A stretch of 64,000 bases of DNA from Bradyrhizobiaceae bacterium (GTDB taxonomy: Bacteria; Pseudomonadota; Alphaproteobacteria; Rhizobiales; Xanthobacteraceae). Position 1 is the stretch's first letter, and each line of letters starts with the position of its first letter. Below the pieces are notes generated by a model. It had not been told where the DNA came from and did not search any database. It saw nothing but the letters and a program-made list of their open reading frames with translations. Shown in pieces: positions 8,694 through 39,938 of the stretch. Where the stretch lies: the NCBI GenBank assembly GCA_020544565.1, contig CP078014.1:376574-440573 (forward strand). The letters are read 5' to 3'. Both the position numbers and the translations under genes were made by a program.

Positions 8694-9104
8694 TTGGAAA
8701 AGCTCAAGAACTACAGGCCCTCGGACAAAGAGCCTTTCATGAACGAGCGTCAGCGGGATTATTTCCGCCGCAAGCTGCTCGACTGGAAGGACGAAATCCT
8801 GCGGGAATCGAAAACCACGCTGCAGCAGCTTCAGGAGGAGAACGTCAATCTTCCTGACCTTGCCGATCGCGCCTCGTCGGAGACCGACCGCGCCATCGAA
8901 CTGCGCGCGCGCGACCGTCAGCGCAAGCTGATCTCCAAGATCGACGCCGCCCTGCAGCGGATCGAGGACAACACCTACGGCTATTGCGAGGAGACCGGCG
9001 AGCCGATCTCGCTGAAGCGGCTGGAGGCCCGTCCCATCGCGACGCTGTCGGTGGAGGCGCAGGAGCGCCACGAGAAGCGCGAGAAGGTCTACCGCGACGA
9101 ATAG
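8694..9104 (+). CDS. dksA: RNA polymerase-binding protein DksA (alphaproteobacterial, only one Zn-finger Cys retained)
   Basis: TTG start; FMNERQRDYFRRKL...DLADRAS...YGYCEETGEPISLKRLEARPIATLS. Confidence 0.93.
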   Translation: MEKLKNYRPSDKEPFMNERQRDYFRRKLLDWKDEILRESKTTLQQLQEENVNLPDLADRASSETDRAIELRARDRQRKLISKIDAALQRIEDNTYGYCEETGEPISLKRLEARPIATLSVEAQERHEKREKVYRDE

Positions 9105-17066: not shown

Positions 17067-17172
17067 TCGGGGGCTTCTAGAGTCGCGCCGTGCCCGGTGA
17101 CAATCCGAAACCGAGTGAAGTGCCGCTGGCGCGTTGGCACAGAGAAGAGCTGGCAAGAGAGAAGAACTGGGA

Positions 17173-21547: not shown

Positions 21548-22578
21548 GCTGGCGGCTTCGGACGGCCGAGCAGGCTCGCCATCTCGTCTTCCAGGCTCTC
21601 GAACGCGGTGGCATCCGATGGCGGCGGCGGCGGCGGAGCCATGCGCGGCGCAGGCTCGGCGCGGCGTGGCGCGGGGGGCGCGCCATGGGCCGGATCGACT
21701 GCGGGGGCGGACGGCCGCGGCTCTGGCGGCGGGCTGCGCAGGTCGGTGCCGGGATGGCGCAGGGCCTGCTCCAGCCGCTTGGCCATGTCAGCGAGATTCT
21801 GATCCGCCGACGACAGCGGTGCGTCGGCGGCCCGCGCCGGGGCGGGTGCCGGTGCCGGGCGGGGCGGCAATGGCGGCAAAGGCTGCGCCTTGGGGGCGAG
21901 ATCGCTCGGGCGCGGGATGCGCGGCTCGTTGCGCTCGCTGCGCGGCAGGACGCGGGCCGGGGCTTCCGGACGGAGCGGCGGCTCCGGGCGAAGCGGAGGT
22001 TCGGCGCGCAACGGCGGCTCGGGCCGCAGCATCGGCTCCGGCGCGAAGTTGGCCATCGGGTCCGCGGCGTGTCGGTCCGTGCCGTGACGGTCCGCTACAT
22101 GGCGGTCCGCCAGCGGCGGCGCGGCGCGGCGGGGCTCGTCCGGGAACGGGGCGCGGACCGGGCGCGGCGGCAGCTCCGGCATCGGCGGCTCGCGGTGGTC
22201 GAGCGGCTCGGCGGCCAGTTCGGTCTCCGGCCACACGTCCGGCGACAGCCGCGCCGGGGTCGGCAGTTCGGTACCGACCGGGCTGCGCTGCGGCGCCTGA
22301 TCGCGCTGGGACTGGCTGCGGACGATATTGGGCTCGACCACGACGTCGGTCGGCCCGCCGATCATCAGCAGGTGTTCGACATTGTCGCGCCGGACCAGCA
22401 CCAGCTTGCGGCGGCCATCCACCGCGGCGGCGTCGATGACGGCGAGGCGCGGCATCCGGCCCCGGCTGGAGTTGGAGCCGATGCCGCCGCTGCCGAAGCG
22501 GCGGACCAGCCAGGCCGCGGCTCCGATCAGCACGAGCACGATGATGAAGGCGATGATAATCCAGAGCGTTTGCGGCAT
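21544..22578 (-). CDS. fliO: Flagellar biosynthesis protein FliO with long Pro-rich tail
   Basis: TM then RLAVIDAAAVDGRRKLVLVRRDNVEHLLMIGG; upstream of and overlapping fliP. Confidence 0.88.
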   Translation of the reverse strand: MPQTLWIIIAFIIVLVLIGAAAWLVRRFGSGGIGSNSSRGRMPRLAVIDAAAVDGRRKLVLVRRDNVEHLLMIGGPTDVVVEPNIVRSQSQRDQAPQRSPVGTELPTPARLSPDVWPETELAAEPLDHREPPMPELPPRPVRAPFPDEPRRAAPPLADRHVADRHGTDRHAADPMANFAPEPMLRPEPPLRAEPPLRPEPPLRPEAPARVLPRSERNEPRIPRPSDLAPKAQPLPPLPPRPAPAPAPARAADAPLSSADQNLADMAKRLEQALRHPGTDLRSPPPEPRPSAPAVDPAHGAPPAPRRAEPAPRMAPPPPPPSDATAFESLEDEMASLLGRPKPPA

Positions 22579-22694
22579 GTGGTGTCCCCGTCAAACAACG
22601 CTTTCTTCTATGCCAGATTCGTCGGCCACGGAGCCGCGAAACCAGGCAGCCCGGGGACAAAACCCGTGTGAAGCGCGCTATTCGTTAAATCGTG

Positions 22695-22865
22695 CCGGCA
22701 ACAACTGCCGCCCGGCGCATCCAGTATCCCATGAATCGCCCCGGCCCAAAACCATATCTTGCGCCAGAACTTCAATGACTTGCCCGGTTATGGGGGAATT
22801 CGTGGCGAAAATGGGCCATTGCCGCTTTTAACCGCTTGTTAACCATACACGCGGCAAATTCTGCC
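22695..22865. promoter_or_regulatory. fliO/flgB divergent control region: two ftr-like palindromes and a perfect CtrA box
   Basis: CCGGCAACAACTGCCG (22695), TTAA-ccgcttg-TTAAC (22828-22843), CGGCAAATTCTGCC (22852). Confidence 0.7.
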
Positions 22866-22907
22866 TAGCTCGCGGCGTTACGCCCCGGGCCTGAGCGGAG
22901 CGATCCG

Positions 22908-23318
22908 ATGCCGATCACCGACCTGCCGATGCTGTCAGCGCTGCGCACCCGGATGCAATGGCATCAGGAGCGCCAGCGCGTGCTGGCCGAAAACGTCTCC
23001 CATTCGGATACGCCGAACTACAAGCCGCGCGACCTGGTCGAGCCGAAATTCGACGCCGCCGGCCGCGGCCCGGTGGCGGGCGCGATGCCGTCGCTGGCCA
23101 TGGCGCGCACCAGCGCCGGGCACATCCAGGCGACTGGCGTCAGCGAAAGCTTCGGCACCGGCCATGGCGGCGGCTACGAGACCCGACCGACGGGCAACGC
23201 CGTCAGCCTCGAAGACGAAATGACGAAGGTCGCGGCCAACCAGACCGACTATGCCGCGGTGACCGCGCTCTACACCCGCAGCCTCGGGCTGCTGAAGACC
23301 GCCATCGGCAAGCGCTGA
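22908..23318 (+). CDS. flgB: Flagellar rod protein FlgB
   Basis: RQRVLAENVSHSDTPNYKPRDL; GNAVSLEDEM. Confidence 0.95.
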   Translation: MPITDLPMLSALRTRMQWHQERQRVLAENVSHSDTPNYKPRDLVEPKFDAAGRGPVAGAMPSLAMARTSAGHIQATGVSESFGTGHGGGYETRPTGNAVSLEDEMTKVAANQTDYAAVTALYTRSLGLLKTAIGKR

Positions 23319-23349
23319 CGCATGATTTCCTGATGAGGGGACAACGAGC

Positions 23350-23772
23350 ATGAGCGACGGCAGCGACTTTCTCCGATCGATGGGCATCGCCACCTCCGGC
23401 CTGCGGGCGCAGGCGGGGCGCATGCGGGTGATCGCGGAAAACATCGCCAACGCGGATTCGACGGCGAAGACCGCGGGCGGCGATCCCTATCGGCGCAAGG
23501 TGCCGACCTTTTCCTCCGAACTCGACCGCAGCCTCGAGGCGCGGGTGGTGACGCTCGGCAAGATCAAGCCGGATACGTCCGACTTCCGCGTCAAGCACGA
23601 GCCCGGCAACCCGGCGGCGGACGCCAACGGCAACGTCAAATATCCCAACGTGAATTCGCTCGTCGAGATGACCGACATGCGCGAGGCGCAGCGGTCCTAC
23701 GAGGCCAATCTCAACATCATCTCCGCCACGCGCCGGATGCTCCAGCGCACCCTCGACATTCTCAAGGCATAA
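23350..23772 (+). CDS. flgC: Flagellar rod protein FlgC
   Basis: RMRVIAENIANADST; YRRK; YPNVNSLVEMTDMREAQRSYEANL. Confidence 0.96.
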   Translation: MSDGSDFLRSMGIATSGLRAQAGRMRVIAENIANADSTAKTAGGDPYRRKVPTFSSELDRSLEARVVTLGKIKPDTSDFRVKHEPGNPAADANGNVKYPNVNSLVEMTDMREAQRSYEANLNIISATRRMLQRTLDILKA

Positions 23773-23785
23773 AGGAATCCGAGCC

Positions 23786-24097
23786 ATGGCTTCGCCGACC
23801 GTCGCCGCCAATGCCTATGCCAGCCTTGCCAAGATCATGGATGCGAGCGGGGGCCTCGGACGCCCCGGCGAGAGCAACGGGCCGTCGTTCGGCGCGGTGC
23901 TGAAGGATGTGGTCAACGGCGTGCTCGACGCCGGCAAGAAATCGGACGCGCAGACCGTCGCCATGGCGCAGGGCAAGGCCAACGTCATGGACGTGGTTAC
24001 GGCGGTGGCCGAGACCGATGTCGCCGTCTCGACGCTGGTGTCGGTGCGCGACCGCGTCATCCAGTCCTACGAAGACATCATGAAGATGCCGATCTGA
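23786..24097 (+). CDS. fliE: Hook-basal body protein FliE
   Basis: GKANVMDVVTAVAE...VRDRVIQSYEDIMKMPI. Confidence 0.95.
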   Translation: MASPTVAANAYASLAKIMDASGGLGRPGESNGPSFGAVLKDVVNGVLDAGKKSDAQTVAMAQGKANVMDVVTAVAETDVAVSTLVSVRDRVIQSYEDIMKMPI

Positions 24098-24137
24098 GGC
24101 GCTCGCTTCCAACAAGGCCCGCAGGGCAGGAGATACC

Positions 24138-24401
24138 ATGACAGGCGCTGAAGTTCTCGACGTGTCGCGCGATGCGATCTGGACCATCGTCAAGGTGTCC
24201 GCGCCGCTGCTGGTGGTCGGCCTCGTGGTCGGCGTCACGATCTCGCTGATCCAGGCGCTGACCCAGATTCAGGAGCAGACGCTGGTGTTCGTGCCGAAGA
24301 TTCTCGCGATCTTCATCACGCTGGTGCTGGCGTTGCCCTACATGGCTGATGCTCTCAACAGCCAGATGCTGCGGATATCGTCGCGAATCATCGGCGGGTA
24401 G
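24138..24401 (+). CDS. fliQ: Flagellar export protein FliQ
   Basis: ISLIQALTQIQEQTLVFVPKI. Confidence 0.96.
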   Translation: MTGAEVLDVSRDAIWTIVKVSAPLLVVGLVVGVTISLIQALTQIQEQTLVFVPKILAIFITLVLALPYMADALNSQMLRISSRIIGG

Positions 24402-24442
24402 CGCATGATCGGGAGCCTCACGACCGTGGCCCGGACCGTTTC

Positions 24443-25213
24443 ATGCGCATCGACATCTCGCTTCTTCCGGCGCTCGCCGCGGCTTTCATGCTGGTGTTCG
24501 CCCGCGTCGGCGCCATGGTGATGCTGCTGCCGGGCTTCGGCGAGGTCAATATTCCGGTGCGGGCCCGGCTCGGCATCGCGCTGGCGCTGACGCTCATTCT
24601 TCTGCCGCTGCACCGCGCCGCCTTTCATGTCGATATGGGATCGGTGGCGCCGATGGCGGTGCTGCTGGTGCAGGAGATCGTGATCGGCGTGGTGCTGGGA
24701 GCGACCGCGCGCGTCACCCTGTCGGCGCTGGCGGTGGCGGGATCGGTGATCGCCCAGCAACTGGGGCTCGGCTTCGTCACCACGGTCGATCCGACCCAGG
24801 GCCAGCAGGGCGCGCTGATCGGCAATTTCCTCACCGTTCTGGCGCTGACGCTGCTGTTCGCCACCGACATGCACCATCTGGTCATCGCCGCGCTGAGCGA
24901 GAGCTACCGCATCTTCGCGCCCGGCGAACTGATGTCGAGCGCCGATGTCGCTTCGCTCGCCACCCGCGCCTTCGCCACCGCCTTCAAGATCGGCATCCAG
25001 CTCGCCGCGCCGTTCATCGTGTTCGGCCTCGTGTTCAACCTCGGCCTCGGCGTGCTGGCGCGGCTGATGCCGCAGATGCAGGTCTATTTCGTCGGTGTGC
25101 CGCTGTCGATTCTGGGCGGCCTGCTGATTCTGGCGGCGGTGCTCGCCACCATGATGGGGACGTTCCTCGATTACTTCGCCAGCATTCTCCACGAACTCGT
25201 GCCGCGGAGCTGA
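24443..25213 (+). CDS. fliR: Flagellar export protein FliR
   Basis: FARVGAMVMLLPGFG; AGSVIAQQLGLGF; RLMPQMQVYF. Confidence 0.95.
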   Translation: MRIDISLLPALAAAFMLVFARVGAMVMLLPGFGEVNIPVRARLGIALALTLILLPLHRAAFHVDMGSVAPMAVLLVQEIVIGVVLGATARVTLSALAVAGSVIAQQLGLGFVTTVDPTQGQQGALIGNFLTVLALTLLFATDMHHLVIAALSESYRIFAPGELMSSADVASLATRAFATAFKIGIQLAAPFIVFGLVFNLGLGVLARLMPQMQVYFVGVPLSILGGLLILAAVLATMMGTFLDYFASILHELVPRS

Positions 25214-25222
25214 GCAGGGGCC

Positions 25223-26296
25223 ATGGCCGACGAGGACAAGGACTCCAAAACACAGGACCCGACGCAAAAACGTCTCGACGAGGCGCTGGAGCGGGGCGAT
25301 GTCGTCAAGAGCCAGGAGGTCAACACCTGGTTCGTGATCGCCGGCTCCACCTTGCTGCTGTCGTCGTTCTCGGGGTCGATCTCGGCGGGCATCCAGGCTC
25401 CGATGCGCAACCTGTTGATGAACGCCCACCAGATCCGCGTCGACGGGCCGGGGGTGCTGGCGCTGATCGGCAGCCTCGAGGGCATCCTGATCGGCGTTCT
25501 CGGCGTTCCGCTGCTGCTGCTGATGATCGCGGGCGTCGGCAGCAACCTGATCCAGCACCGGCTGGTGTGGTCGGCGCAGCCGCTCGTGCCCAAGTTCAGC
25601 AAGATTTCGCCGATGGCGGGCGCGAAGCGGCTGTTCGGCAAGCAGGCGTGGGCCAATTTTCTCAAGGGGCTGTTCAAGATCATCGCGCTCGGCAGCGTGA
25701 TGAGCATGGTGCTGTGGCCGGAGCGCCACCGCCTCGACGCGCTGGTGCGGTTCGATCCGGTGTCGTTGCTCGGGGTCACCAAGGCCATCTCGGTGCAGTT
25801 GATGGGCACCGTGGTGGCGATGCTGGCGCTGGTAGCGGCGCTCGACTACCTGTTCCAGTACCGGCAGTGGTTCGAGCGGCAGAAGATGTCGCTGGAGGAG
25901 ATCAAGGAGGAATACAAGCAGTCCGAGGGTGATCCCCACATTAAGGGCCGCATCCGGCAGTTGCGTCATGCCCGCATGAAGAAGCGGATGATGGCGGCGG
26001 TGCCGACCGCCTCGGTCGTCATCACCAACCCGACCCACTACGCGGTGGCGCTCAAATACGAGCGCGGCATGCCGGCGCCGCTCTGCGTCGCCAAGGGCGT
26101 CGATCTGATGGCCCTGAAGATCAGGGAGGTCGCCGCAGCCAACGACGTGCCGGTGGTCGAGAACGTGCCTCTGGCGCGCGCGCTGCACGCCAGTGTCGAG
26201 ATCGACGACGAGATTCCGGTCGAGCACTATCACGCGGTCGCCGAGGTCATCGGTTATGTCATGAAGCTGCGGAGCGGGGTGCGGGGCCTTGGCTGA
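25223..26296 (+). CDS. flhB: Flagellar export protein FlhB
   Basis: KTQDPTQKRL; SEGDPHIKGRIR; NPTH autocleavage motif. Confidence 0.97.
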   Translation: MADEDKDSKTQDPTQKRLDEALERGDVVKSQEVNTWFVIAGSTLLLSSFSGSISAGIQAPMRNLLMNAHQIRVDGPGVLALIGSLEGILIGVLGVPLLLLMIAGVGSNLIQHRLVWSAQPLVPKFSKISPMAGAKRLFGKQAWANFLKGLFKIIALGSVMSMVLWPERHRLDALVRFDPVSLLGVTKAISVQLMGTVVAMLALVAALDYLFQYRQWFERQKMSLEEIKEEYKQSEGDPHIKGRIRQLRHARMKKRMMAAVPTASVVITNPTHYAVALKYERGMPAPLCVAKGVDLMALKIREVAAANDVPVVENVPLARALHASVEIDDEIPVEHYHAVAEVIGYVMKLRSGVRGLG

Positions 26297-26472
26297 CCGT
26301 TCCGCCACCGACCCGCGCCGGGCAAGGTCTGGCGTGCGCTGTGAACCGGTCGTAATGTGCCTTGCGTCATGAGGACCGATTCAGGCACTGAGGACGCGGC
26401 GGCGTGGAGTTCCGCGACTTCATGCCGCGACACCGGCTTCCGCCCCTGCGGGCCACGCGCTGACGGACTGTC

Positions 26473-29049
26473 ATGACCTCCGATACCGGCAACGATCTGC
26501 GTCCTTCCCCCAACGCCGCCGCGGAACCGGCGGCGCGGCGCGGCGGCAGCATCGTGCTGGTGCTGCTGGTGGCGGCGACGATCGTCGCCGCGGCGGTGGC
26601 GTTCATGACCCTCGGCCGCAGCCAGGCCCAGCCCTATATCCTGGCGCTGCTGGCGCTGCTGGCGATGGTCGGCATGTTCACGCTGTTCGCGTTCGCCGCC
26701 GGGATCGTGCGGTTCGCCGACCGCCATGCCGAAGACCCGATCATCCGCCCGATCTCGGACCACGCCTTCGACGGGCTCGCGGTGACCGATCCGCGCGGCT
26801 ATGTGGTCTATGCCAACACCGCCTATCTGGCGCTGACCGGCGCGTCCGGCCCGGGCGACGTGCGGCCGGTGGAGCGGGTGTTCATCGGCAATCCGGACGT
26901 CTCGGAAGCGGTGTTCCGCCTGCTCAAGGCGGCGCGCGAGGGCAAGCGTCTGCAGGAGGAGGTGCGTGTCGCCGGCCCCGACAGCGCCCACGGGCGCTGG
27001 CTGCGGCTGCGGGTGCGTCCGCTCAGCGCCGAAAAGCGCCACGCGAAATATGCGGTGTGGTCGGTGGCCGACATCACCCGCGACCGCGAGCGGCAGGAGG
27101 ACGTGTTCCAGGAACTCCAGCACGCCATCGAGTATCTCGATCACGCGCCGTGCGGCTTCTTCTCGGTCAACGCCGCCGGCGAACTGGTCTATGTCAACGC
27201 GACGCTGGCCAACTGGCTGGACTACGATCTCGCCGAGATCGGCTCCGGCGGCCTGAAGGTCGCCGACATCATGTCGGGCGACGGCGCGGCGCTGTTGACC
27301 TCCATCGTGCCGGAGCCGGGCGAGGTCAAGACCGAGGTGTTCGACCTCGACCTGCGCATGCGCAACGGCAAGACCATGCCGGCGCGGCTCTATCACAAGC
27401 TCGCTTTCGGCGCGGACGGCGCCGCCGGCGCCTCGCGCACCCTAGTCATCAACCGCGCCCGCGACGACCACGCCGATCCGCAGCGCGCGGCGGAAGTGCG
27501 CTTCATGCGCTTCTTCGACCACACCCCGATGGCCATCGCCACCGTGGACAAGGCCGGCAACATCGTGCGTGCCAACGCCCGCTTCGCCAAGCTGGCGCAG
27601 AGCCTGTCCGGCGCCGGCAGCGCCAGCAAGTCGATCTTCGCCGTGGTCAGCGAGCGCGAGCGCGGCGAACTCGTCGCCGCCATCGCCCAGGCGGCCGACG
27701 GGCAGGGCGACATTCCGCCGGTCGAGGCCAAGCTCGACAGCGCCAGGGAGCGCTGGGGCCAGTTTTTCGTCACGGCCGTCGAACAGGATACGCGCGACGC
27801 CGAGGCGGCCATCGTCTACGTGCTCGACATCACCGAGAAGCGCACGCTGGAGAACAGCTTCGCCCAGTCGCAGAAGATGCAGGCTGTAGGCCAGCTCGCC
27901 GGCGGCATCGCCCACGATTTCAACAACGTGCTGTCGGCCATCATGATGGCCAACGATTTCCTGCTGAACGCCCACAAGCCGACCGACCCGTCGTTCCAGG
28001 ACATCATGCAGATCAAGCAGAACGCCACCCGCGCGGCGACGCTGGTGCGGCAGTTGCTGGCGTTCTCCCGCCGCCAGACGCTGCGGCCGCAGGTGCTGGA
28101 CCTGCGCGATGCGCTGTCCGATCTCACCATGCTGCTGAAGCGGCTGTCGGGCGAGAAGGTGAAGCTCGATTTCGTCCACGGCCGCGATCTGTGGCCGGTC
28201 AAGGTGGATGTGTCCCAGTTCGAGCAGGTGATCGTCAATCTCGCGGTCAACGCCCGCGACGCCATGCCGGACGGCGGCAAACTGACCATCCGCACCCTCA
28301 ACATGCCGGCGAAGGACGCCGAGCGCTTCGACTACAAGGGCCTGCCCGTGGCTGACTACGTCGCGGTCGAGGTCACCGATACCGGCACCGGCATTCCGCC
28401 GGAGATCGTCGACAAGATCTTCGAGCCGTTCTTTTCCACCAAGGAAGTCGGCAAGGGCACCGGCCTCGGCCTGTCCACGGTCTACGGCATCGTCAAGCAG
28501 ACCGGCGGCTTCGTCTATGTCGATTCGGCGGCGGGGCGCGGCACCACGTTCCGGATTTTCCTGCCGCGCCACATCCCCGAGATCGAGGCCGTGCCGGAGT
28601 CCGCGCCCGAAGCCCCGGCCGTGGCGGCCCCCGGCGCCGAGCCCGCGCTGAAGCCGCGCGCCACCGACCTCACCGGGCAGGGCACCATCCTGCTGGTGGA
28701 GGACGAGGACGGGCTGCGCTCGCTCAACGCGCGCGGCCTGCGTTCGCGCGGCTATACCGTGATCGAGGCCGAGAACGGCCAGGACGCGCTGGAGGCGATG
28801 GAGCGCGAGCAGGGCGCGGTCGATCTCGTGGTGTCCGACGTGGTGATGCCGGAAATGGACGGCCCCACCATGCTGATCGAGATGCGCAAGCGCAATCCGG
28901 AGATCCGCATCATCTTCGTGTCGGGCTATGCCGAGGACGCTTTCGAGAAAAGCCTGCCGGAAGGCCAGCAGTTCAATTTCCTCGCCAAGCCGTTCACGCT
29001 GAGCCAGCTTGTGGCGGCGGTGAAGGAAACCATGACGGTTTCGTCATAA
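26473..29049 (+). CDS. cckA: Cell-cycle hybrid histidine kinase CckA
   Basis: 2 TM, PAS domains, H-box [10 protein letters not shown]-box [21 protein letters not shown]-terminal receiver (DVVMPEMDG); conserved position after flhB. Confidence 0.9.
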
Positions 29050-29219
29050 TTCTCCTCGCCCGGTTCCCGCCGCCTCGTGCGTCCGCCGCGTGACCCGCGA
29101 CGCAGAGACGCAGCGCCTGCGACTTCTGTGCGCTTTTCTTTTTACCCGCCGTGCCCATGTATGGACCTGTCCCGAAAACGGGATCAATGCCCCCCCCCGA
29201 GGGCCGAGAGGGAACACAG

Positions 29220-30191
29220 ATGAAGTCTTCGCAGCGCTTGCGCTCAGTCATCAAGACGCTGGCCGTGGTCATGGCGCTGGCCATGCCGCTGGCGCTTGCC
29301 GTGTCGTCGTCGGTCGATGCGCGCCCCGGAGGCGGCGGCGGTTTCGGCTCGCGCGGCTCGCGGACGTTTACGGCGCCGCCGACCACCCGCACCGCGCCGA
29401 ACACGGCGCAGCCGATGCAGCGGTCCATCACCCAGCCCGGCGTCAACGCCCCGGCCTCGGCCGCCGCCAAGGGCGGCATGTTCAGCCGGCCCGGCCTGCT
29501 CGGCGGTCTGGCCGCCGGCTTCCTCGGTGCCGGCCTGTTCGGCCTGCTGTTCGGCGGCGGCCTGTTCGGCGGTCTCGGCGGGCTGTCGTCGATTATCGGC
29601 CTCGTGCTGCAGATCGGCCTGATCTATCTGGTAGCGCGCCTCGCCATGTCGTGGTGGCAGCGCCGCAACGCGCCCGCGTTCGCCAGCGCCGCGCCCGCGC
29701 CGGGTGCGACTCCGCAGCAGCCGCAGCAGCAGGGCCCGCTCGCCCATGCGCGCAGCGGTTTCGGCTTCAACTCCGGCTCCGGCAGCGCGCCGCTCGAGAT
29801 CAAGCCCGACGATTACGACGCCTTCGAGCGGATGCTCGGCGAGGTGCAGACGGCCTGGTCGAACGAGGACATCGCCAAGCTGCACACGCTGGCGACGCCG
29901 GAAATGGTGTCGTATTTCACCCAGGACCTCGACGCCAACAAGGCGCGCGGCGTGATCAACAAGGTGACCGACGTCAAGCTGCTGCAGGGCGATCTCGCCG
30001 AAGCCTGGCGCGAAGGCACCACCGACTACGCCACGGTGGCGCTGCGCTATGCGCTGGTGGACAAGACCGTCGAGCGCGACAGCGGCAAGATCGTCGAGGG
30101 CAGCGACGCACCCACCGAAGTCACCGACGTGTGGACCTTCGTGCGCCGGCCCGGCAGCGGCTGGGAACTGTCGGCGATCCAGGTGACCTGA
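29220..30191 (+). CDS. Tim44-like domain protein
   Basis: Signal-like N-terminus, GGGGGFGSRGSRT, Gly-rich TM, C-terminal Tim44 fold (DVKLLQGDLAEAW...VWTFVR). Confidence 0.85.
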   Translation: MKSSQRLRSVIKTLAVVMALAMPLALAVSSSVDARPGGGGGFGSRGSRTFTAPPTTRTAPNTAQPMQRSITQPGVNAPASAAAKGGMFSRPGLLGGLAAGFLGAGLFGLLFGGGLFGGLGGLSSIIGLVLQIGLIYLVARLAMSWWQRRNAPAFASAAPAPGATPQQPQQQGPLAHARSGFGFNSGSGSAPLEIKPDDYDAFERMLGEVQTAWSNEDIAKLHTLATPEMVSYFTQDLDANKARGVINKVTDVKLLQGDLAEAWREGTTDYATVALRYALVDKTVERDSGKIVEGSDAPTEVTDVWTFVRRPGSGWELSAIQVT

Positions 30192-30232
30192 CCGCTCACC
30201 TGACCGCGTTCGCACCGGTCGCAAAACAAACG

Positions 30233-30262
30233 AAGGCGTCGCGCCAGCGCGACGCCTTTTTT
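30233..30262 (+). terminator. Intrinsic terminator
   Basis: aaggcgtcgcg-ccag-cgcgacgcctt-tttt. Confidence 0.8.
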
Positions 30263-30319
30263 ATGAGCCGTTCAGGCCCGGCACCTGTTTGTTTCGCGTG
30301 AGGCGTGACGCTTGAACTT

Positions 30320-31897
30320 TCACGGGACGTGAAAGACCTCGAGTTGCGGCAAGCCGATCGGCCTCACTCCTATGTCCTTGGCCAGCAGGCCGAAGGCTTC
30401 GGTTTCAATCAAATCCTTGTAGGGCACTTCCGGAAAGCGGAGGCCCGCGCGATGCAGGCTTGCGTCGACGAGAAGCGTCGTTCCTCCTACGGCATCGAGC
30501 TCGACGCGGTCGGTGTGGCGAAGCTGATCCAGATGAAATCGCCCGCGCGCCCTGGCGGGAGGTTGAAACAGGCCGTCTTTGACGTGCTTGTAGTAAAAAT
30601 CCGGTTCGTACTCCCAGCTCGTGACAAATGTATTGAGGTCAAAGCTGGGACCACCGGAAAATTTCACGCAATTGGGCGTAACGATCCGACCGCCCGACTG
30701 CCTGAGCTCCTGAAAGAGATCCGGCGGAAACTTCCACATATCGACGTCGATCCACAACGCCCAATCGTCGGCGTCATCCAGGCCGTGATCAATCAGATGG
30801 TTTCGCACAATGGCAATGCCGGCCCGGCGCGCTCTCTGCAGTTCCTTGCTCCAGCGTCGATCCCGACTCACCCGCGTGCCGACATCTTTCTTCAGGACGA
30901 CGACCTCCCGGTAGTGTTCACGAAGGTCTTCCGCTCGCTTGTTGAGCAAGTCCCAGGTTCCGTCGGTGCTGTCGCCTTCGCAGAAAGCGATCTTTGTCTT
31001 CGACTTGTCCAGGTCGGTTTTTGCAATGGCATCGATGAAACCGTCGATGTCTCCGATGGCGTCGCGTACCGGAACGAGCACGGCGACCCGGTCTCCGGCG
31101 GGTGGGGGCCGGTCGATGACGCTGGCGTCAAATTGTTTCAAGGCCTTTTCCAGACTGAGGGTTCTGCCCGCATGCCAACGATGAATCGCCCGCCGGACAT
31201 TCGTCTTGACGCTGCGGTGAAACGACTTCATCGGCTGATGGGGTGTCCACCACGAGCATTGCCAGTCATGGCGGGTCAGGGGTTCGGGTGTCTCCGATCC
31301 ATAGGCCGGGTATTGGCGATGCTGGGAATCCGTGGGCGTGAAAAGCTGGCAATTGTGAAGCGCGATCGAGGCCTTGTCCTCGAAGCCCAGATAGAGCCCG
31401 GTCAAAAAGCATGGTCCCGTTTGGTCCAGTACGTCCTCTCCATACCTGCCGAGCGGCAGCCGTTCCAGCAGGCGGGTCCAGAGCGGATGACCGGCCGGGC
31501 CAGCCATCACCCCGTTGAAGATGACGAAAGGATGGGATCGGTAGGGAGCATGCATTGGCCAATGCGATGGCGGCTCGTGGCATAGAACGGCGCGCGTTTC
31601 GTTCGCGATCGGATCGAGCGGCGCGAGACACTCCACGTCGATATCCGCATAGAAACCACCGAATTTGTGCAGCAGCATGTAGCGTGCGGCGTCTGCGCGG
31701 GAGACGGCATTGCCATAGGAGCAATAGAGATCGAAAAGATGCGGGTAATGCTCGCTGACAAATGTCAGCAGCATCCGGTCGGTCCAGAGAATTCTCTCCC
31801 ATGACGGGTTATGACGCTGCCAACTGTCTGCAAAGGCGGCGACCCTGGGAGGGAGCAGCTCGCTTTTCCAGGTCTGGTGAATGAGGCGAGGGATCAT
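30320..31897 (-). CDS. Two-domain glycosyltransferase: GT32 (Sur1/Och1-like, DXD) fused to GT62 (Anp1/Mnn9/Van1-like)
   Basis: N-half IPRLIHQTWK...RADAARY.LL...GGFYADID; C-half RNHLI...WALWIDVD...VTPNC...FDLN...LDAVGGTTLLVDASLHRAG...LIETEAFG. Confidence 0.8.
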   Translation of the reverse strand: MIPRLIHQTWKSELLPPRVAAFADSWQRHNPSWERILWTDRMLLTFVSEHYPHLFDLYCSYGNAVSRADAARYMLLHKFGGFYADIDVECLAPLDPIANETRAVLCHEPPSHWPMHAPYRSHPFVIFNGVMAGPAGHPLWTRLLERLPLGRYGEDVLDQTGPCFLTGLYLGFEDKASIALHNCQLFTPTDSQHRQYPAYGSETPEPLTRHDWQCSWWTPHQPMKSFHRSVKTNVRRAIHRWHAGRTLSLEKALKQFDASVIDRPPPAGDRVAVLVPVRDAIGDIDGFIDAIAKTDLDKSKTKIAFCEGDSTDGTWDLLNKRAEDLREHYREVVVLKKDVGTRVSRDRRWSKELQRARRAGIAIVRNHLIDHGLDDADDWALWIDVDMWKFPPDLFQELRQSGGRIVTPNCVKFSGGPSFDLNTFVTSWEYEPDFYYKHVKDGLFQPPARARGRFHLDQLRHTDRVELDAVGGTTLLVDASLHRAGLRFPEVPYKDLIETEAFGLLAKDIGVRPIGLPQLEVFHVP

Positions 31898-31920
31898 GTG
31901 GCGGAAATTCGGATAGGCTT

Positions 31921-33099
31921 TCAGAAGACGTGGCGGTGGGACAAGGCCTGGCGCACGGCGTTATCGATGACCGCGGGCCCGAAGCGGCGATGGACGGCCT
32001 CAAAAGCCCTGCGGCGTTGCATGTCATATCTTTCCGGATCGGATGACAAGGCGCATATATCGCGGGCGATCTCCCCGTCGGTATCGGCGATGAGGATTTC
32101 TTCCCCATTGGCGAAGTTATGGCCTTCGGCAGCTACCGTTGTCGCTATCACCGGCAGTCCGAATGTCATGGCTTCGAGAATTTTTATCCGCGTTCCGCCA
32201 CCGCTTGAGAGCGGAACCACGCTGAGATTTGCTTGGGCGTAGAGAGGAGCGATGTCGTCCGGATTGGCGATCAGCTCGACGTCACATTCGCGCGCCAATT
32301 GGCTGATGGGCGCATCGGGAAGCCGGCCGGCAACGGTCAGTCTGGCATCCGGAAACTGCATTTTCACACGCGGCAATATTTCTCGCGCGAGACGCCGGAC
32401 GGCCTCCTTGTTCGGCGAGTAGCCGAGATGTCCAACAAACAGGATTCTCGGCGGCCCGATCGGTCCTCGCGAAATCAGCGCCGGTTCAACGCAACAATCC
32501 GGGCGTGGGAGACCGTTGGGAACGATGTACGTGGGCGTCTGCGCATCGACCAGATTGCGGACACGCTCATGGTCGTCGGAGGAGCACACCCAGATCTGGT
32601 CCACCATCCTTGCGGCTTTTCGCTCGCGGCGGCGCAGACGCCAAGTGTTCGACAGGAAGATGTGCCGGAACGAAGGGCCTGAGGCGATGTCTTTAACCAG
32701 GTCGGACTCGACGTTGTGCATGTCGAGGATGAGCGTTCTGGCCGATGATCGCAAATGCTTCATGAGGGGGAAGAGCGAAATGCCCTCGACGACGACAATA
32801 TCCGGCTGTTGTCGCTCAACGAGAAGCTTCAACTTGATGAGAGCCGATTTCGGAATGCGAACGTCGATGGGCGTGGTGCGCCGTGCGATCGCCGGGGTTC
32901 TTGCTTCCCCGTTCTCGGTCAGCGCGACCAGTTCAACATTCGGGTGGCCGGCCATTGCTGCCCCTAAATGCAGCGGACGCAAGGATGCCGCCGTGACCCG
33001 GCCGAGCTTCGAGAGTGCGAGCACGTTCTGCCAGTTACGAAGGTCCGCCCCGGCAATCGGCGGCGCGGCGGGATCCACGGAAATTGCGAGGATTTTCAT
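31921..33099 (-). CDS. Glycosyltransferase family 4 (GT-B)
   Basis: ILFVGHLGYSPNKEA; VPLSSGGGTRIKILEAMTFGLPVIAT (EX7E-type region). Confidence 0.85.
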   Translation of the reverse strand: MKILAISVDPAAPPIAGADLRNWQNVLALSKLGRVTAASLRPLHLGAAMAGHPNVELVALTENGEARTPAIARRTTPIDVRIPKSALIKLKLLVERQQPDIVVVEGISLFPLMKHLRSSARTLILDMHNVESDLVKDIASGPSFRHIFLSNTWRLRRRERKAARMVDQIWVCSSDDHERVRNLVDAQTPTYIVPNGLPRPDCCVEPALISRGPIGPPRILFVGHLGYSPNKEAVRRLAREILPRVKMQFPDARLTVAGRLPDAPISQLARECDVELIANPDDIAPLYAQANLSVVPLSSGGGTRIKILEAMTFGLPVIATTVAAEGHNFANGEEILIADTDGEIARDICALSSDPERYDMQRRRAFEAVHRRFGPAVIDNAVRQALSHRHVF

Positions 33100-33405
33100 G
33101 GGCCTATGGCCTATGGCCTTTTAAAGATAAGATCAAAAAATTGAGTGGCGCTCCAATACAGGAAAAGCTTCCTTTCCTGGAAGAGTATTTCGCCGGCACG
33201 GTCTGGAATGGCCCTAATGATCCGGGCCCGGGCTCCCAGCCTCCCAGCCTCTGCCCCGGCGTGCGGCGGGAGCGGGCGGCGAAGGTGGAGTTCGAGCCTC
33301 GCGGGCGTGTGCGGACAAGGGTTCCGAATCACCCCGGTTGCCGCAATGATGGCGCATTCGCCCTGTCTGGTCGTTCAATACCGGAACCGCGAAGGAGGAG
33401 GACCG

Positions 33406-33753
33406 ATGCGCATCGTCGCCCCCGCCATTTATGCTGCTCTGCTGGGCGGCGCGATCTATATCGCTATCGCGCAGAACCCGCTGCCGAACGCCATCGCGTC
33501 GGTGCAGCCCGAGGGCGCGCGGGTCGCTGCTCCGGCGACGGCGCACGGAAAGACCTCCGTGCCGGCAAAGGTCGGCAAGCGCGAGAACTGCCGCCAGTCG
33601 GTCGGCGCGAAACATCTCGGCAAGCATCAGGCGCGCGACCAGATGCAGCTCTGCGTGGCGCAGGCGCGCGTCGATTGCCTCAAGCAGGCTATCGACCAGA
33701 AGCTGCGCGGCGCGGCCCGGCGCGTCTATGTCAAAAGCTGCGTCGCGGCGTAG
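33406..33753 (+). CDS. Small exported Cys-paired protein, PsiF-like
   Basis: GGAGGAGG RBS; N-terminal hydrophobic segment; CLKQAIDQKLRGAARRVYVKSC resembles the PsiF repeat. Confidence 0.6.
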   Translation: MRIVAPAIYAALLGGAIYIAIAQNPLPNAIASVQPEGARVAAPATAHGKTSVPAKVGKRENCRQSVGAKHLGKHQARDQMQLCVAQARVDCLKQAIDQKLRGAARRVYVKSCVAA

Positions 33754-33821
33754 CGCCGTGCATCATGAAAGCCGCGATGCTGGCTATGGTCGCGCGTGTC
33801 CGCGTCGGACCGGAGCCTCGC

Positions 33822-34298
33822 TCACACGCCCTTTTCGCGGGAGATCGTGATCCGCACGCCGGTCTTGGCCACGGTGCAGTGGATGTCGAGGCGGCGGTAG
33901 CGTGAATCGATATTGTAGCCGCGGATGATGTTGGTGCGGCCGACGCAGCGTTGCGCGCCTTTTAGCGTGTCGGCTTTCGGGATGGTGAAGACGATCGCCG
34001 CGGCGGTGGCGAGAAAGTCGTAGAACTCCGGCGCGGGCTTCTTCTTGTCGGTGGCGGCGAACACCTCGTTGGTGCGGTTGCGGCTCTGGCAGCCGAGCGA
34101 CGCCTGGGTCACCGCCGGGTGTTCGAGATAGATCACGCCGGCGACGGTCTTGCCGACTTTCAGGCCGGAAATCTGCTGGGCCAGATCCCTCGCCATGTCG
34201 TCGCAGCGGTCGGCGCGGGCCGTCGCCGACCCCAGCGTGAGCAGGGCCAGCGCGAGCGCCATGGCCGGAAATGCGGAAAGTGCGATGCGTTCGATCAT
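33822..34298 (-). CDS. Exported hypothetical protein with 4 Cys
   Basis: Sec signal ending ARA-D; good codon usage. Confidence 0.7.
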   Translation of the reverse strand: MIERIALSAFPAMALALALLTLGSATARADRCDDMARDLAQQISGLKVGKTVAGVIYLEHPAVTQASLGCQSRNRTNEVFAATDKKKPAPEFYDFLATAAAIVFTIPKADTLKGAQRCVGRTNIIRGYNIDSRYRRLDIHCTVAKTGVRITISREKGV

Positions 34299-34536
34299 GG
34301 CGTTCCTTTACGCCATTCAAGCGCGCGAGGCTCGTTTGTGCAAGGTCGGGGCGTGTCAGGGGTGAAGGCGGATTTTTCTTCCGGCCGTCCCCGCACAGTT
34401 GGGGACGAGATCGGGGACGACGCGCCCGTTCGTCCCTCCTGGCCGGCAGCCGACACAGCGGCGCAACCGCGCGATGCACGTCCGGCGCGGGCTGTACTGT
34501 ACGACCTCCGGCCATCTTCCCTTTGCCGGAAAAGCG

Positions 34537-34553
34537 ATTAGAACGGTTCGAAT
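34537..34553. promoter_or_regulatory. Iron control element (Irr box) upstream of fumarase
   Basis: ATTAGAACGGTTCGAAT vs consensus TTTRGAAYNRTTCYAAA; downstream gene is an Fe-S enzyme. Confidence 0.6.
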
Positions 34554-34620
34554 CTGAGATCGGGCAGGCGCGGTTATTGAATTTCCTGCGCTTTTTGCCT
34601 TCCAACCCGTGAGTCCGTCC

Positions 34621-36273
34621 ATGAACGCTCCGACCGCCATTCCCTCCGCCAAGCCCGTTCCGCCCTACAGGCACACCCCGCTGTTTCCGCTCGGCGCGGA
34701 CAGGACGCCGTATCGCAAGATTTCAAGCGACGGCGTGCGGGTCGAGACGGTGCTCGGCAAGGAGATGCTGGTGGTGTCGCGCGAGGCGTTGCGGGCGCTG
34801 TCGGAAGCCGCGTTCGGCGACATCAACCACTATCTGCGCCCGGGGCATCTGGCGCAGTTGCGCAAGATCCTCGACGATCCGGAAGCCAGCGACAACGACA
34901 AGTTCGTGGCGCTCGACGCGCTGAAGAACGCCAACATCGCCGCCGGCGGCGTACTGCCGATGTGCCAGGACACCGGCACCGCGATCATCATGGGCAAGAA
35001 GGGCTGCAACGTCATCACCGACGGCGAGGACGAGGCCGCGCTGTCGGAAGGCGCGCGCGACGCCTATCTGCGCCGCAACCTGCGCTATTCACAGGTCGCG
35101 CCGTTGTCGATGTTCGAAGAGAAGAACACCGCCAACAACATGCCGGCGCAGTGCGAGATCTACGCGGAGGGCGACGACGCCTACAAGTTCATGTTCATGG
35201 CCAAGGGCGGCGGCTCGGCCAACAAGAGCTTCCTGTTTCAGGGCACGCCGTCGCTGCTGACCAAGGACCGCCTGCATGCCTTCATCAAGGAGAAGGTGCT
35301 GACCCTCGGCACCGCCGCGTGTCCGCCCTATCACCTCGCCATCGTCATCGGCGGCACCTCGGCCGAGCTGTGCATGAAGACGGTGAAGCTCGCCTCCGCC
35401 CGCTATCTCGACGAACTGCCGACCCACGGCTCGGACGCGGGCAACGCTTTCCGCGATCTCGAGATGGAGCAGGACATCCTGAAGATGACGCAGTCGCTCG
35501 GCGTGGGCGCGCAGTTCGGCGGCAAGTATTTCTGCCACGACGTGCGGGTGATCCGCCTGCCGCGCCACGGCGCGTCGCTGCCGATCGGGCTCGGCGTGTC
35601 GTGCTCGGCCGACCGTCAGGTGCTCGGCAAGATCACCAAGGACGGCGTCTATCTGGAGGAGCTGGAGCACAACCCGGCGAAGTACCTGCCGGAAGTGGAA
35701 GCCGCGCTCGGCGGCGAGGTGGTGGAGATCGACCTCAACCGGCCGATGAAGGACATCCTCGCCGCGCTGACGAAATATCCGACCAAGACGCGGCTGTCGC
35801 TGACCGGCACCATGATCGTGGCGCGCGACGCCGCCCACGCCAAGCTGCGCGAGCGGCTCGAGAAGGGCGAGCCGCTGCCGGACTACTTCAAGAACCATCC
35901 GGTCTATTACGCCGGCCCGGCCAAGACGCCTGAGGGCTACGCCTCCGGCGCGTTCGGTCCGACCACGGCGGGGCGCATGGATTCGTTCGTCGACCAGTTC
36001 CAGGCGGCGGGCGGTTCGATGGTGATGGTGGCCAAGGGCAACCGCTCGGCGGCGGTGCGCGATGCCTGCAAAAAGTATGGCGGGTTCTATCTCGGCTCGA
36101 TCGGCGGATCGGCGGCGAACCTTGCCGAGCACTGCATCCGCAAGGTCGAGGTGCTGGAATATCCCGAACTCGGTATGGAGGCGATCTGGCGCATCGAGGT
36201 CGAGAACTTCCCCGCCTTCATCATCATGGACGACAAGGGCAACGACTTCTTCAAGGAGTTGAATCTGGGGTGA
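34621..36273 (+). CDS. fumA: Class I (Fe-S) fumarate hydratase
   Basis: PMCQDTG; AKGGGSANK; ACPPYH; GGKYFCHD; YYAGPAKTP; GPTTAGRMD. Confidence 0.95.
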
Positions 36274-36323
36274 GAGCGCACGCGTCGCCCAAGCTTGGGC
36301 GATGGCGATTCAAACTACTCCAT

Positions 36324-36453
36324 CGTCATGGCCGGGCCATAGCCCGTCGAAGACGGGCGTAAACGCCCTCATGGCCCGTCGAAGACGGGCGTAAACGCCC
36401 TTATGGCCCGTCGAAGAACGGCGTCGCTTTCGCTCGCCTATGACCCGGCCATC
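36324..36453. repeat. REP-like hairpin whose loop carries tandem 32-bp palindromic modules
   Basis: cgtcatggccggg-[gcccgtcgaagacgggcgtaaacgccctYatg x2 at 36342 and 36374, variant at 36406]-cccggccatc. Confidence 0.8.
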
Positions 36454-36461
36454 AATTCTTT

Positions 36462-36537
36462 CGTCATTGCGAGCGAAGCGAAGCAATCCAGTTTTTGTAA
36501 AATGGATTGCTTCGTTGCTTTGCTCCTCGCAATGACG
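36462..36537. repeat. Second CGTC-tagged palindromic repeat family
   Basis: cgtcattgcgagcgaagcgaagcaatcca...tggattgcttcg...ctcgcaatgacg. Confidence 0.8.
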
Positions 36538-39200: not shown

Positions 39201-39938
39201 ATGCCCGACATTTCCCCGAACAAGCCCTATCGCATCGGCCGGTCGAAGACCGGGCTCGGTCTCTTCGCCACCCGCAAGATCAAGAAGGGCAGCAAGATCA
39301 TCCGCTATTTCGGGCCGATGCTCGACTCGCGCAACAAGAAGCACCAGGACATCGACAACAAGTATCTGTTCGAGATCAACAACCGCTGGACCATCGATGG
39401 TTCGGTGCGCAAGAACATCGCCCGCTACATCAACCATGCCTGCCGCCCCAACGCGGAGTCCGACGTCAATACGCGCAAGCGCAAGGTGGTGATCCGCGCC
39501 GTCAAGACCATCCATCCGGGCGAGGAGATCAACTACGATTACGGCACCGACTACTTCAAGATCTTCCTCAAGCCGATCGGCTGCAAGTGCGACCACTGCG
39601 AGAAGAAGCGCGCCAAGAAAGAGGCTGACAAGCGCGCGGAAGCCCGCGCCGAGAAGCTGCGGCTGAAGCGCAAGGCCGAGAAGAAGGCGGCGAAGGACGC
39701 CGCCAAGCCGGCCAAGAGCAAGGCCGTCAAGACCAAGGCCGTCAAATCCAAGGCCCTCAAGACCAAAGCGGTGAAGACGAAGGCTGCGACAGCGAAGTCG
39801 GCGTCGAAGCTCGCGCGCGGCAAGGCCGGCCCTCATGCCCGGGGCACCGGCCAGCCGACCCGTACCAAGGCGTCGCGCACGAAACCGCTGGCAGGCGGCG
39901 CGGCCGCGCCGAGCCGCAAGCGCGCTTCCGCGATCTGA
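39201..39938 (+). CDS. SET-domain protein-lysine methyltransferase with post-SET Cys cluster and Lys/Ala-rich tail
   Basis: GLGLFA, ARYINHACRPN, GEEINYDY, CKCDHC; tail KAVKTKAVKSKALKTKAVKTKA. Confidence 0.9.
   Translation: MPDISPNKPYRIGRSKTGLGLFATRKIKKGSKIIRYFGPMLDSRNKKHQDIDNKYLFEINNRWTIDGSVRKNIARYINHACRPNAESDVNTRKRKVVIRAVKTIHPGEEINYDYGTDYFKIFLKPIGCKCDHCEKKRAKKEADKRAEARAEKLRLKRKAEKKAAKDAAKPAKSKAVKTKAVKSKALKTKAVKTKAATAKSASKLARGKAGPHARGTGQPTRTKASRTKPLAGGAAAPSRKRASAI

Follow-up and report, generated by a model that had tools for sequence, protein, structure and literature searches.

A bacterial GT32-GT62 glycosyltransferase fusion encoded with a GT4 partner in an accessory cassette of a Bradyrhizobiaceae genome

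In yeast, mannan is initiated by the glycosyltransferase family 32 (GT32) enzyme Och1 and extended by the GT62 enzymes of the mannan polymerase complexes M-Pol I and M-Pol II (PMC3787745, PMC5225481). M-Pol II consists of Mnn9, Anp1, Mnn10, Mnn11 and Hoc1, and so holds GT32 and GT62 proteins in one complex, with Hoc1 (GT32) beside Anp1 (GT62) (PMC5225481). The GT62 family (PF03452) has been treated as restricted to fungi among eukaryotes (PMC5225481), and the literature handles it as a fungus-specific family and an antifungal target. We analysed a 64,000-nucleotide stretch of DNA from a Bradyrhizobiaceae bacterium (GCA_020544565.1, contig CP078014.1, positions 376,574 to 440,573; hereafter the window), in which one gene encodes a GT32 domain joined to a GT62 domain. 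The locus shows that a fully equipped GT62 domain exists in soluble bacterial proteins, where it is habitually joined to GT32, and this joining mirrors the partnership in the yeast Golgi mannan polymerase. Together with a GT4 gene, the fusion travels among bacteria as a small mobile cassette.

The E. coli O8/O9a system (WbdA/B/C/D and Wzm/Wzt) has soluble, cytoplasmic, multi-domain alpha-mannosyltransferases that use GDP-mannose (GDP-Man) and a lipid-linked acceptor. These mannosyltransferases are all GT4 enzymes, and their loci hold an ABC exporter, a chain terminator and manB/manC. The cassette resembles that system in having a GT4 partner, but none of the O8/O9a locus set (Wzm/Wzt, terminator, manB/manC) was found in the 64-kb window or among the 25 commonest families around 24 related loci.

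A soluble protein joining GT32 and GT62 domains

The gene is a minus-strand open reading frame (ORF) with an ATG start, and encodes 525 amino acids (aa). A first-pass annotation, made by a model from the DNA letters, had placed it at 30320-31897 and listed its motifs, all of which are present. The gene and its parts are as follows.

30320-31897, minus strand: coding sequence of the GT32-GT62 fusion, 525 aa, about 60 kDa, pI 6.6, without transmembrane or signal segment
31163-31897, minus strand: GT32 domain (Och1/Hoc1/Sur1-type, GT-A fold), aa 1-245, called from PF04488, the Och1 profile match and Foldseek
31637-31645, minus strand: DXD motif of the GT32 domain, D85-I-D87, aligned with Och1 D187-M-D189
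31172-31222, minus strand: basic interdomain helix, aa 226-242 (FHRSVKTNVRRAIHRWH), from the AlphaFold2 model
30323-31114, minus strand: GT62 domain (Mnn9/Van1/Anp1-type, GT-A fold), aa 262-525, called from PF03452, the Mnn9 profile match and the top Foldseek structure in the Protein Data Bank (PDB)
30740-30748, minus strand: DXD motif of the GT62 domain, D384-V-D386, aligned with Mnn9 D236-A-D238
30329-30331, minus strand: H523, predicted Mn2+ ligand of the GT62 domain, aligned with Mnn9 H389 and invariant

The fusion matched PF03452 (Anp1) over aa 268-491 (E 7e-33, 114.6 bits, cutoff 28.8) and PF04488 over aa 17-102 (E 1e-16, 61.9 bits, cutoff 23). Both scores lie far over the cutoffs and bear out the proposed GT32 N-terminal half and GT62 C-terminal half. 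The generic GT2 models PF00535 (17.8 bits) and PF13704 (15.7 bits) each stayed under their own cutoff, so the C-terminal half does not score as a generic GT2 domain, and no NCBIfam model was informative. The N-terminal half carries the motifs IHQTWK (6-11), LWTD (37-40), RADAARY (67-73) and GGFYADIDVE (80-89), and the C-terminal half carries RNHLI (365-369), WALWIDVDMW (379-388), PNC (408-410), FDLN (419-422), LDAVGG (467-472) and LIETEAF (496-502). The highest mean Kyte-Doolittle hydrophobicity over 19 residues was 1.05, with no transmembrane or signal segment, which supports the cytoplasmic polypeptide of the first-pass annotation. Full-length homologues span 521-528 aa from the same start, with M1, I2 and P3 conserved.

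Structural comparison gave the same assignment for each half. Searched against the PDB as a single sequence, the fusion matched yeast Mnn9 (3zf8, E 1e-17) and yeast Och1 (9n3s, E 3.6e-5). A profile of 50 homologues matched Mnn9 over the entire C-terminal domain (E 4.8e-30) and Och1 over aa 2-97 (E 1.7e-13), with a weak match of the C-terminal domain to the procollagen galactosyltransferase ColGalT1 (E 4e-5). An AlphaFold2 model built on the homologue alignment had a predicted local distance difference test score (pLDDT) of 93.6 and a predicted template modelling score (pTM) of 0.90. In a Foldseek search of the PDB with this model, Mnn9 ranked first (E 5e-18, template modelling score 0.70 normalised to Mnn9), with an identity of only about 21% in the structural alignment. 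The GT32 half matched Och1 (9n3s, E 1.9e-9), YeGT (8ovt, E 1.7e-7) and SetA (8x4m, E 2e-7), and YeGT has been named among the GT32 structures (PMC12312940). The lowest pLDDT of the model (68-78) immediately precedes the helix at aa 226-242. Segment 220-262 holds nine lysines and arginines against three aspartates and glutamates and is poorly conserved (0.24-0.29), and the modelled helix is a possible membrane- or acceptor-contact element.

GT62 enzymes are retaining and form alpha-1,6 or alpha-1,2 mannosidic bonds with GDP-Man as donor. The catalytic residues of the GT62 half were compared with those of Mnn9. R209, D236, D280 and H389 of Mnn9 are each essential by mutagenesis, and H389 coordinates Mn2+ and is indispensable for activity; E364 and T365 are proposed mannose contacts, and the side chain of Q124 buries the guanine (PMC3787745). 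In the alignment, the four essential residues correspond to R357, D384, D420 and H523 of the fusion. Among 50 homologues, D384, D420 and H523 were invariant, and R357 and D386 were each conserved at 98%. Because 3zf8 is a D236N mutant, the aligned segments WLNADII and WIDVDMW equate D236-A-D238 of Mnn9 with D384-V-D386. E364 and T365 correspond to E498 and T499, and all of the GT62 site residues were invariant or at least 98% conserved among the 50 homologues. Q124 is replaced by R278, which is invariant and has a long side chain comparable to R130 of the GDP-Man enzyme Kre2, and the counterpart of the Mnn9 hairpin I262-N283 is about 8 residues shorter. Since all essential and proposed GDP-Man-contact residues of Mnn9 are conserved, mannose transfer is reasonable for this half, which judging from these residues is probably a retaining, Mn2+-dependent, GDP-Man-using enzyme.

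For the GT32 half, the donor-site residues of Och1 are T103, D139, D171, R174 and D187-M-D189 (PMC12312940). T103, D139, D171 and R174 correspond to T9, D40, D69 and R72 of the fusion, conserved at 96-100%. D85 and D87 were invariant in the 50 homologues, and the residue between them was always hydrophobic (I, L, M or V), in line with retaining enzymes. The alignments to 9n3s ended near aa 100, before the counterparts of Och1 Q263, a contact to mannose O2 and O3, and H463, a C-terminal histidine; the invariant H137 and H210 are candidates only. Against an Afipia homologue of 87% identity, the ratio of nonsynonymous to synonymous substitution rates was 0.11 in each half, indicating that both domains are under purifying selection. 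Taken from its sequence, the protein is a single soluble polypeptide that joins GT32 to GT62, with catalytic machinery that appears intact.

Compared with Mnn9, Van1 and Anp1 (M-Pol I and II, 3zf8), the fusion falls in the same Pfam family, has the GT-A fold and keeps the catalytic residues. Mnn9-type enzymes are Golgi-lumenal type II membrane proteins that form a hetero-oligomer with a second GT62 protein, whereas the fusion has no N-terminal anchor or stem, is predicted to be cytoplasmic and covalently carries GT32 instead; its acceptor cannot be a eukaryotic-type N-glycan. The likeness to Och1, Hoc1 and Sur1/Csh1 (9n3s) lies in PF04488, in the DXD motif with its hydrophobic middle and in the counterparts of T103, D139, D171 and R174, but the sequence alignment reaches only the first ~100 residues of the fusion, which has no transmembrane anchor and no N-glycosylation. 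The GT32-GT62 pairing of M-Pol II is physical, whereas it is covalent in 69 of the 148 closest bacterial GT62-domain representatives, and M-Pol II has the GT34 partners Mnn10 and Mnn11 where the bacterial partners are GT4 and often GT2. In the multi-glycosyltransferase proteins of Streptomyces and Azospirillum, GT32 and GT62 likewise occur in this order; the separate GT4 gene of the window corresponds to the internal GT4 module of the Azospirillum chains, and the fusion is the minimal form of such chains, with no inserted module. The two-domain glycan polymerases K4CP (chondroitin polymerase of E. coli K4), LARGE1 and CHSY3-CHPF, all of them matches in the fold search, share with the fusion two DXD-bearing GT-A domains per chain, but their CAZy families and donors differ and they superpose poorly. 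The root-mean-square deviation (rmsd) above 20 Å marks these matches as generic GT-A similarity. As far as sequence and predicted structure go, the fusion has every property of GT62 and GT32 that was tested and lacks only those specific to the fungal Golgi.

Family spread, the GT4 partner and insertion of the cassette

A word-indexed protein search with the fusion returned at least 407 clusters, and the best 120 of these were all 508-591 aa long (nearly all 521-528) with the same architecture. Named cluster members came from Mesorhizobium, Aminobacter, Bauldia, Prosthecomicrobium and Parvibaculum and were annotated merely as 'glycosyltransferase'. A scan of one genome per species found the fusion in 137 species, the majority of them Hyphomicrobiales, with distant carriers at 47-53% identity in metagenome-assembled genomes (MAGs) of Desulfuromonas, Geobacteraceae, Verrucomicrobia and Planctomycetota. 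This patchy taxonomic spread suggests horizontal transfer. The carriers are free-living bacteria of water, soil and sludge. The full fusion lies on a plasmid of Gemmobacter aquarius and extended forms lie on Azospirillum megaplasmids; among 50,697 phage records there was no full-length match, leaving a phage origin unsupported. The fusion is therefore a common bacterial family, already sequenced and generically annotated. The fusion proposed in the first-pass annotation stands; that it is widespread and not a singular event had been overlooked there, as had the GT4 partner described below. A literature search on bacterial GT62, on PF03452/PF04488 and on GT62 with polysaccharide found no study of a bacterial member.

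When the GT62 half was the only query of an exhaustive search, 893 clusters at 50% identity came back, and 145 of these reached E<=1e-30. The GT62-like domain was almost always C-terminal, in host proteins of 250 to 1,837 aa, and the 69 representatives with a GT32-like domain upstream in the same chain joined the two directly, with an insert of ~300 aa, or in giant proteins with two GT32 copies. The multi-glycosyltransferase chains included GT32-GT2-GT62 (Streptomyces, 822 aa), GT32-GT2-GT4-GT62 (Azospirillum plasmids, ~1190 aa), GT32-GT2-TPR-GT-D-like-GT4-GT62 and GT2-GT4-GT62. The comparison with the fungal family was made through fragments of yeast Mnn9 only. By this comparison the top 150 GT62-like representatives had 30-46% identity to fragment 1 and 45-58% to the C-terminal catalytic segment, and none of them was close to fungal Mnn9. 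A few GT62-like proteins of 384-467 aa (P0240, P0244 and P0250) have an N-terminal membrane anchor as in Golgi type II enzymes and about 30% identity to Mnn9 fragment 1. These proteins may be GT62 relatives from eukaryotes other than fungi, and if so would have a bearing on where the family arose.

Upstream of the fusion lies a second glycosyltransferase gene, and both lie within inserted DNA.

31921-33099, minus strand: GT4 glycosyltransferase (GT-B fold, retaining), 392 aa, 23 bp upstream of the fusion; PF13692 at 79.7 bits, and PF00534
33100-33301, minus strand: non-coding leader of the cassette, AT-rich beside the GT4 start, presumed promoter region
30261-33301, no strand: insertion of 3,041 bp with both glycosyltransferase genes and their upstream region only, from blastn against the sister locus
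30233-30258, no strand: hairpin with an 11-bp stem, 8 G-C pairs and T/A runs on its flanks, abutted by the left insertion edge

The only PDB sequence matches of the GT4 protein were to PimA, a GDP-Man-dependent phosphatidylinositol alpha-mannosyltransferase (E 1e-5), and its best NCBIfam score, 122 bits against TIGR03087, did not reach the cutoff of 317. Of 80 species loci, 71 had a full-length GT4 homologue next to the fusion, with the GT4 upstream and in the same orientation at 66, convergent at 4 and divergent at 1; the other nine loci had partial matches only (four) or none (five). In about half of the loci, the GT4 part was the C-terminal half of a ~700-aa GT2-GT4 protein. The GT4 protein of the window aligned end-to-end with the GT4 half of the Mesorhizobium GT2-GT4 protein at 46% identity (E 2e-99). 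The conserved adjacency and the single-chain fusions are Rosetta-stone evidence that GT4, GT32, GT62 and often GT2 belong to one pathway. On this comparative evidence the functional unit is the gene pair of GT4 and GT32-GT62, and the two genes are probably co-transcribed.

The neighbourhoods of the module varied. Glycan-type neighbours included Wza, Wzy_C and an acyltransferase-3 in Mesorhizobium, GT25 and pyruvyl transferase genes on the Gemmobacter plasmid, an FkbM-type methyltransferase within the operon in Bauldia, and GT2, GT25 and a radical SAM protein at one further locus. Housekeeping genes only were found in Prosthecomicrobium (purine genes) and at loci with zapA/rpoH-like flanks, and in the window the module lies between the Tim44 and fumarase genes.

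The host of the window is an Afipia-like bacterium of the Nitrobacteraceae, and the cassette was delimited by blastn against L092, the corresponding locus of a sister Afipia sp. MAG (GCA_041905905.1). Positions 2-8009 of L092 matched 22220-30260 of the window at 92%, and 8066-9053 matched 33302-34345, so that the 3,041 bp of the window stand in place of 56 bp of sister sequence. The sister MAG shares the gene order of the window (fliR, flhB, CckA-type kinase, Tim44-like, a small gene, a 158-aa gene, fumarase, IspA, TetR, SET), without glycosyltransferases at the site. Its copy of the fusion, 87% identical, is on a different contig, next to a LigD-type ligase, and has no GT4 beside it. The insertion has a GC content of 0.596 against 0.664 in the flanks, and the GC content at third codon positions (GC3) is 0.70 in both cassette genes against 0.87-0.92 in their neighbours; gene calling based on GC3 skipped both genes. 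The site is intergenic, just downstream of the terminator of the Tim44-like gene, with edges at 30260/30261 and 33301/33302, at which no direct repeats, tRNA or integrase were found. The hairpin at 30233-30258 terminates the convergent Tim44-like gene and probably the cassette as well. The cassette was found unchanged in one freshwater metagenome and, near-identical and contiguous, in one sediment run, and no deletion joints were seen; all runs that contained its sequence were DNA metagenomes. A part of the stretch 27500-36500 was met mostly in sequencing runs of human origin, as might be expected if Afipia/Bradyrhizobium-like bacteria often contaminate water or reagents. The cassette is accessory, was acquired by insertion and is stable in related environmental populations.

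Two more Afipia relatives (L093 and L094) lose synteny at the same spot and carry other cargo there (cupin, GST or other genes), which makes the site a variable hotspot. On the right-hand side, a 202-aa ORF at 33145-33753 (plus strand) reaches too far into the inserted DNA. The start codon of the conserved gene is the ATG at 33406, behind a GGAGGA ribosome-binding site, and the 115-aa product has a single hydrophobic segment and matches no Pfam family; the gene is common to the sister genomes.

Proposed function and competing explanations

We favour, by a modest degree of confidence, the explanation that the cassette is an acquired operon that adds a few alpha-linked sugars to an acceptor made elsewhere. 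GT4 and, distal to it, GT32-GT62 would form an accessory operon of two genes that an Afipia-like host took up as a 3-kb insertion. The cassette encodes three retaining, catalytically intact modules (GT4, GT32 and GT62) without a membrane anchor, and its two genes would be transcribed together from the AT-rich leader at 33100-33301 as far as the shared hairpin. These modules would act sequentially at the cytoplasmic face of the membrane, where the basic helix at aa 226-242 may help the fusion to dock. The donors would be nucleotide sugars, with GDP-mannose and Mn2+ expected at least for the GT62 module, and a short run of alpha-linked sugars would be added to an acceptor that is a glycan or is linked to a lipid. 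The glycan pathways of the host, with genes at other places in the genome, would make this acceptor and export it.

Several observations weigh against this explanation. Genes for an exporter, a priming phosphoglycosyltransferase or GDP-mannose synthesis are absent from the window. When 128 proteins around 24 diverse related loci were surveyed with Pfam, and a family was taken to recur if it had two or more members, neither exporters nor priming transferases recurred, nor did any GDP-mannose or flagellar family. A sigma-70 consensus scan of the cassette leader detected no promoter, so the promoter is presumed and not demonstrated. The fusion stands alone among housekeeping genes in Prosthecomicrobium and in the sister Afipia MAG; the fusion thus does not always come with GT4, and its acceptor may be something other than a classical surface polysaccharide. 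GT32 also includes users of UDP-GlcNAc (PaTox and YeGT; PMC12312940), so the donor sugar is not fixed, and the GT32-type RAD..RY motif and the DXD motif are not specific to mannose. Finally, the literature search found no biochemical or genetic study of any member of the family.

The fusion should be easy to express, because it is soluble and needs no glycosylation, and as a model it could make the catalysis of GT62 and GT32 enzymes, and the coupling of priming to extension, tractable to study. It could also reveal a new bacterial alpha-glycan. If the product is an ordinary side-branch of lipopolysaccharide (LPS) or exopolysaccharide, the finding shrinks to one more accessory glycosyltransferase.

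The donor is the point on which the strongest rival turns. If one or both GT-A domains took a UDP-sugar (Glc, Gal or GlcNAc), the product would not be mannan-like, and we regard this as unlikely, though it carries some weight. The GlcNAc-transferring PaTox and YeGT belong to GT32 (PMC12312940), the glycosyltransferase-domain structure of the Legionella effector SetA was among the structural matches, and ColGalT1 matched the C-terminal profile weakly (E 4e-5). Against these stand the conservation of every tested or proposed GDP-Man contact of Mnn9 in the GT62 half, the lead of Mnn9 over all other structures by many orders of magnitude, and the place of Och1 as best PDB sequence match of the GT32 half.

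The first-pass annotation had proposed that one polypeptide primes and extends a fungal-like mannan. In such a self-contained alpha-mannan synthase, GT32 would prime and GT62 would processively extend alpha-1,6-mannan, or the domains would alternate linkages. The yeast division of labour between Och1 and M-Pol I and II, the company of Hoc1 and Anp1 in M-Pol II, and the two GT-A domains per chain of K4CP, LARGE1 and CHSY3 all speak for it, and the pTM of 0.90 would point to a fixed interdomain geometry. However, Mnn9 is a priming and not a processive enzyme, and Van1 requires Mnn9 as an allosteric partner (PMC3787745). The shortened hairpin is the element of Mnn9 proposed as a 'molecular ruler', and the tandem polymerases matched with an rmsd above 20 Å. 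No ABC transporter, chain terminator or carrier-priming enzyme was present in the window or recurred in the 24 neighbourhoods, and the variable extra modules of the relatives (GT2, GT4, GT-D-like) resemble the assembly of a defined heteroglycan and not of a homopolymer. We consider the proposal improbable. A broader version, in which bacterial GT32...GT62 proteins and their GT4 and GT2 partners are the prokaryotic counterpart, possibly the source, of the fungal mannan-polymerase machinery and the cassette is a minimal self-sufficient cytoplasmic alpha-mannan synthase, appears to us more doubtful still. If true, the GT32-GT62 partnership of yeast M-Pol II would be an ancient bacterial and not a fungal invention.

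The product could instead be soluble and cytoplasmic, such as a mannosyl or glucosyl glycoside, a compatible solute or an intracellular oligosaccharide. Every module is soluble, no exporter was linked to it in the survey, and the module often lies among housekeeping genes (zapA/rpoH-like, purine, Tim44/fumarase). The nearest structural relatives of Mnn9 include mannosylglycerate synthase, which acts on a small acid, and the Bauldia operon contains a methyltransferase. On the other side, Wza, Wzy_C and acyltransferase-3 beside the Mesorhizobium module and the GT25 and pyruvyl transferase genes beside that of the Gemmobacter plasmid are typical of surface polysaccharide or lipooligosaccharide work, and phosphatase or hydrolase partners of the compatible-solute-pathway kind were lacking. 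We think such a product quite improbable.

Glycosylation of flagellin or another protein, which the first-pass annotation had named as a candidate activity, is very hard to sustain. A flagellar cluster with two flagellin-family genes of 25% Ser+Thr lies 4-30 kb from the fusion, and bacterial GT32 members include protein-modifying toxins (PMC12312940). The sister genome, however, keeps the flagellar, CckA and Tim44 synteny without the cassette, so that this proximity is an accident of insertion, and no flagellar family recurred in the 24 loci surveyed or in five inspected contexts. That a fungus was the recent donor of the gene, or that the gene serves to mimic fungal or host mannan (the latter also suggested at first), is scarcely credible: GT62 has been described as fungi-restricted among eukaryotes (PMC5225481) and the cassette is compositionally foreign in the genome, but the fusion has only about 21% identity to Mnn9 in the structural alignment, the 893 GT62-like clusters show many bacterial architectures (with members named in Streptomyces, Azospirillum and Proteobacteria), the top 150 representatives are not Mnn9-like, the nearest donors are bacterial and the hosts are free-living. 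The comparative evidence speaks against both of these proposals.

Other observations in related loci and in the window

In 34 of the 80 related loci, the first gene of the operon encodes a dedicated ~215-aa protein and immediately precedes the GT2(-GT4) gene, often with a 4-nt overlap (for example at L004:5195-5845, L013:3110-3793, L024:3169-3810 and L078:9736-10446); it does not occur in the window. The protein has a primase-polymerase (Prim-Pol; AEP) fold, with PF09250 at 38-59 bits, an AlphaFold2 pLDDT of 94 and pRN1 ORF904 as best fold match (template modelling score 0.65), and its D-F-D and G-x-H motifs are invariant. With 115 clusters the family is small, and GT2 is the partner that it follows most tightly; L091 (Hoeflea) has Prim-Pol and GT2 alone, and L090 has Prim-Pol, GT2 and GT4. 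The protein had no PADLOC or NCBIfam match, and no literature on a Prim-Pol with a glycosyltransferase was found.

In several Mesorhizobium genomes, a gene for a Cap12/Pycsar-type TIR effector (PADLOC TIR, E 8e-31) lies immediately upstream of the Prim-Pol-glycosyltransferase operon, at L004:4164-5093 and likewise at L019, L054, L043, L046 and L060. These positions suggest that the glycosyltransferase module lands in defence or variable islands. PADLOC gave no match for the fusion, the GT4, the Prim-Pol-like or the GT2-GT4 protein, and we rejected a defence-system reading of the cassette because PADLOC was silent except for the unrelated, adjoining TIR gene in Mesorhizobium.

Elsewhere in the window, the pyruvate formate-lyase gene at 51808-54081 (minus strand) has an in-frame TAA at 52738-52740, within the conserved LL.AINGG motif. 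The gene is split into ORFs of 447 aa and 301 aa and is either a nonsense pseudogene or the result of a sequencing error; the gene for the activating enzyme at 50943-51800 appears intact. At 39201-39938 (plus strand) lies a gene for a SET-domain protein of lysine methyltransferase type (PF00856, E 6e-24), which has the same position in the sister Afipia MAG. SET domains are believed to be uncommon in bacteria. The flagellar cluster includes, in the most GC-rich part of the window (0.70-0.72), a 1,217-aa ORF at 17134-20787 (plus strand) with a GC3 of 0.88, a good coding signature and no Pfam match. A class A beta-lactamase-family gene (9171-10040, plus strand; PF13354, E 3e-42) lies between the flagellar genes flgI and flgH.

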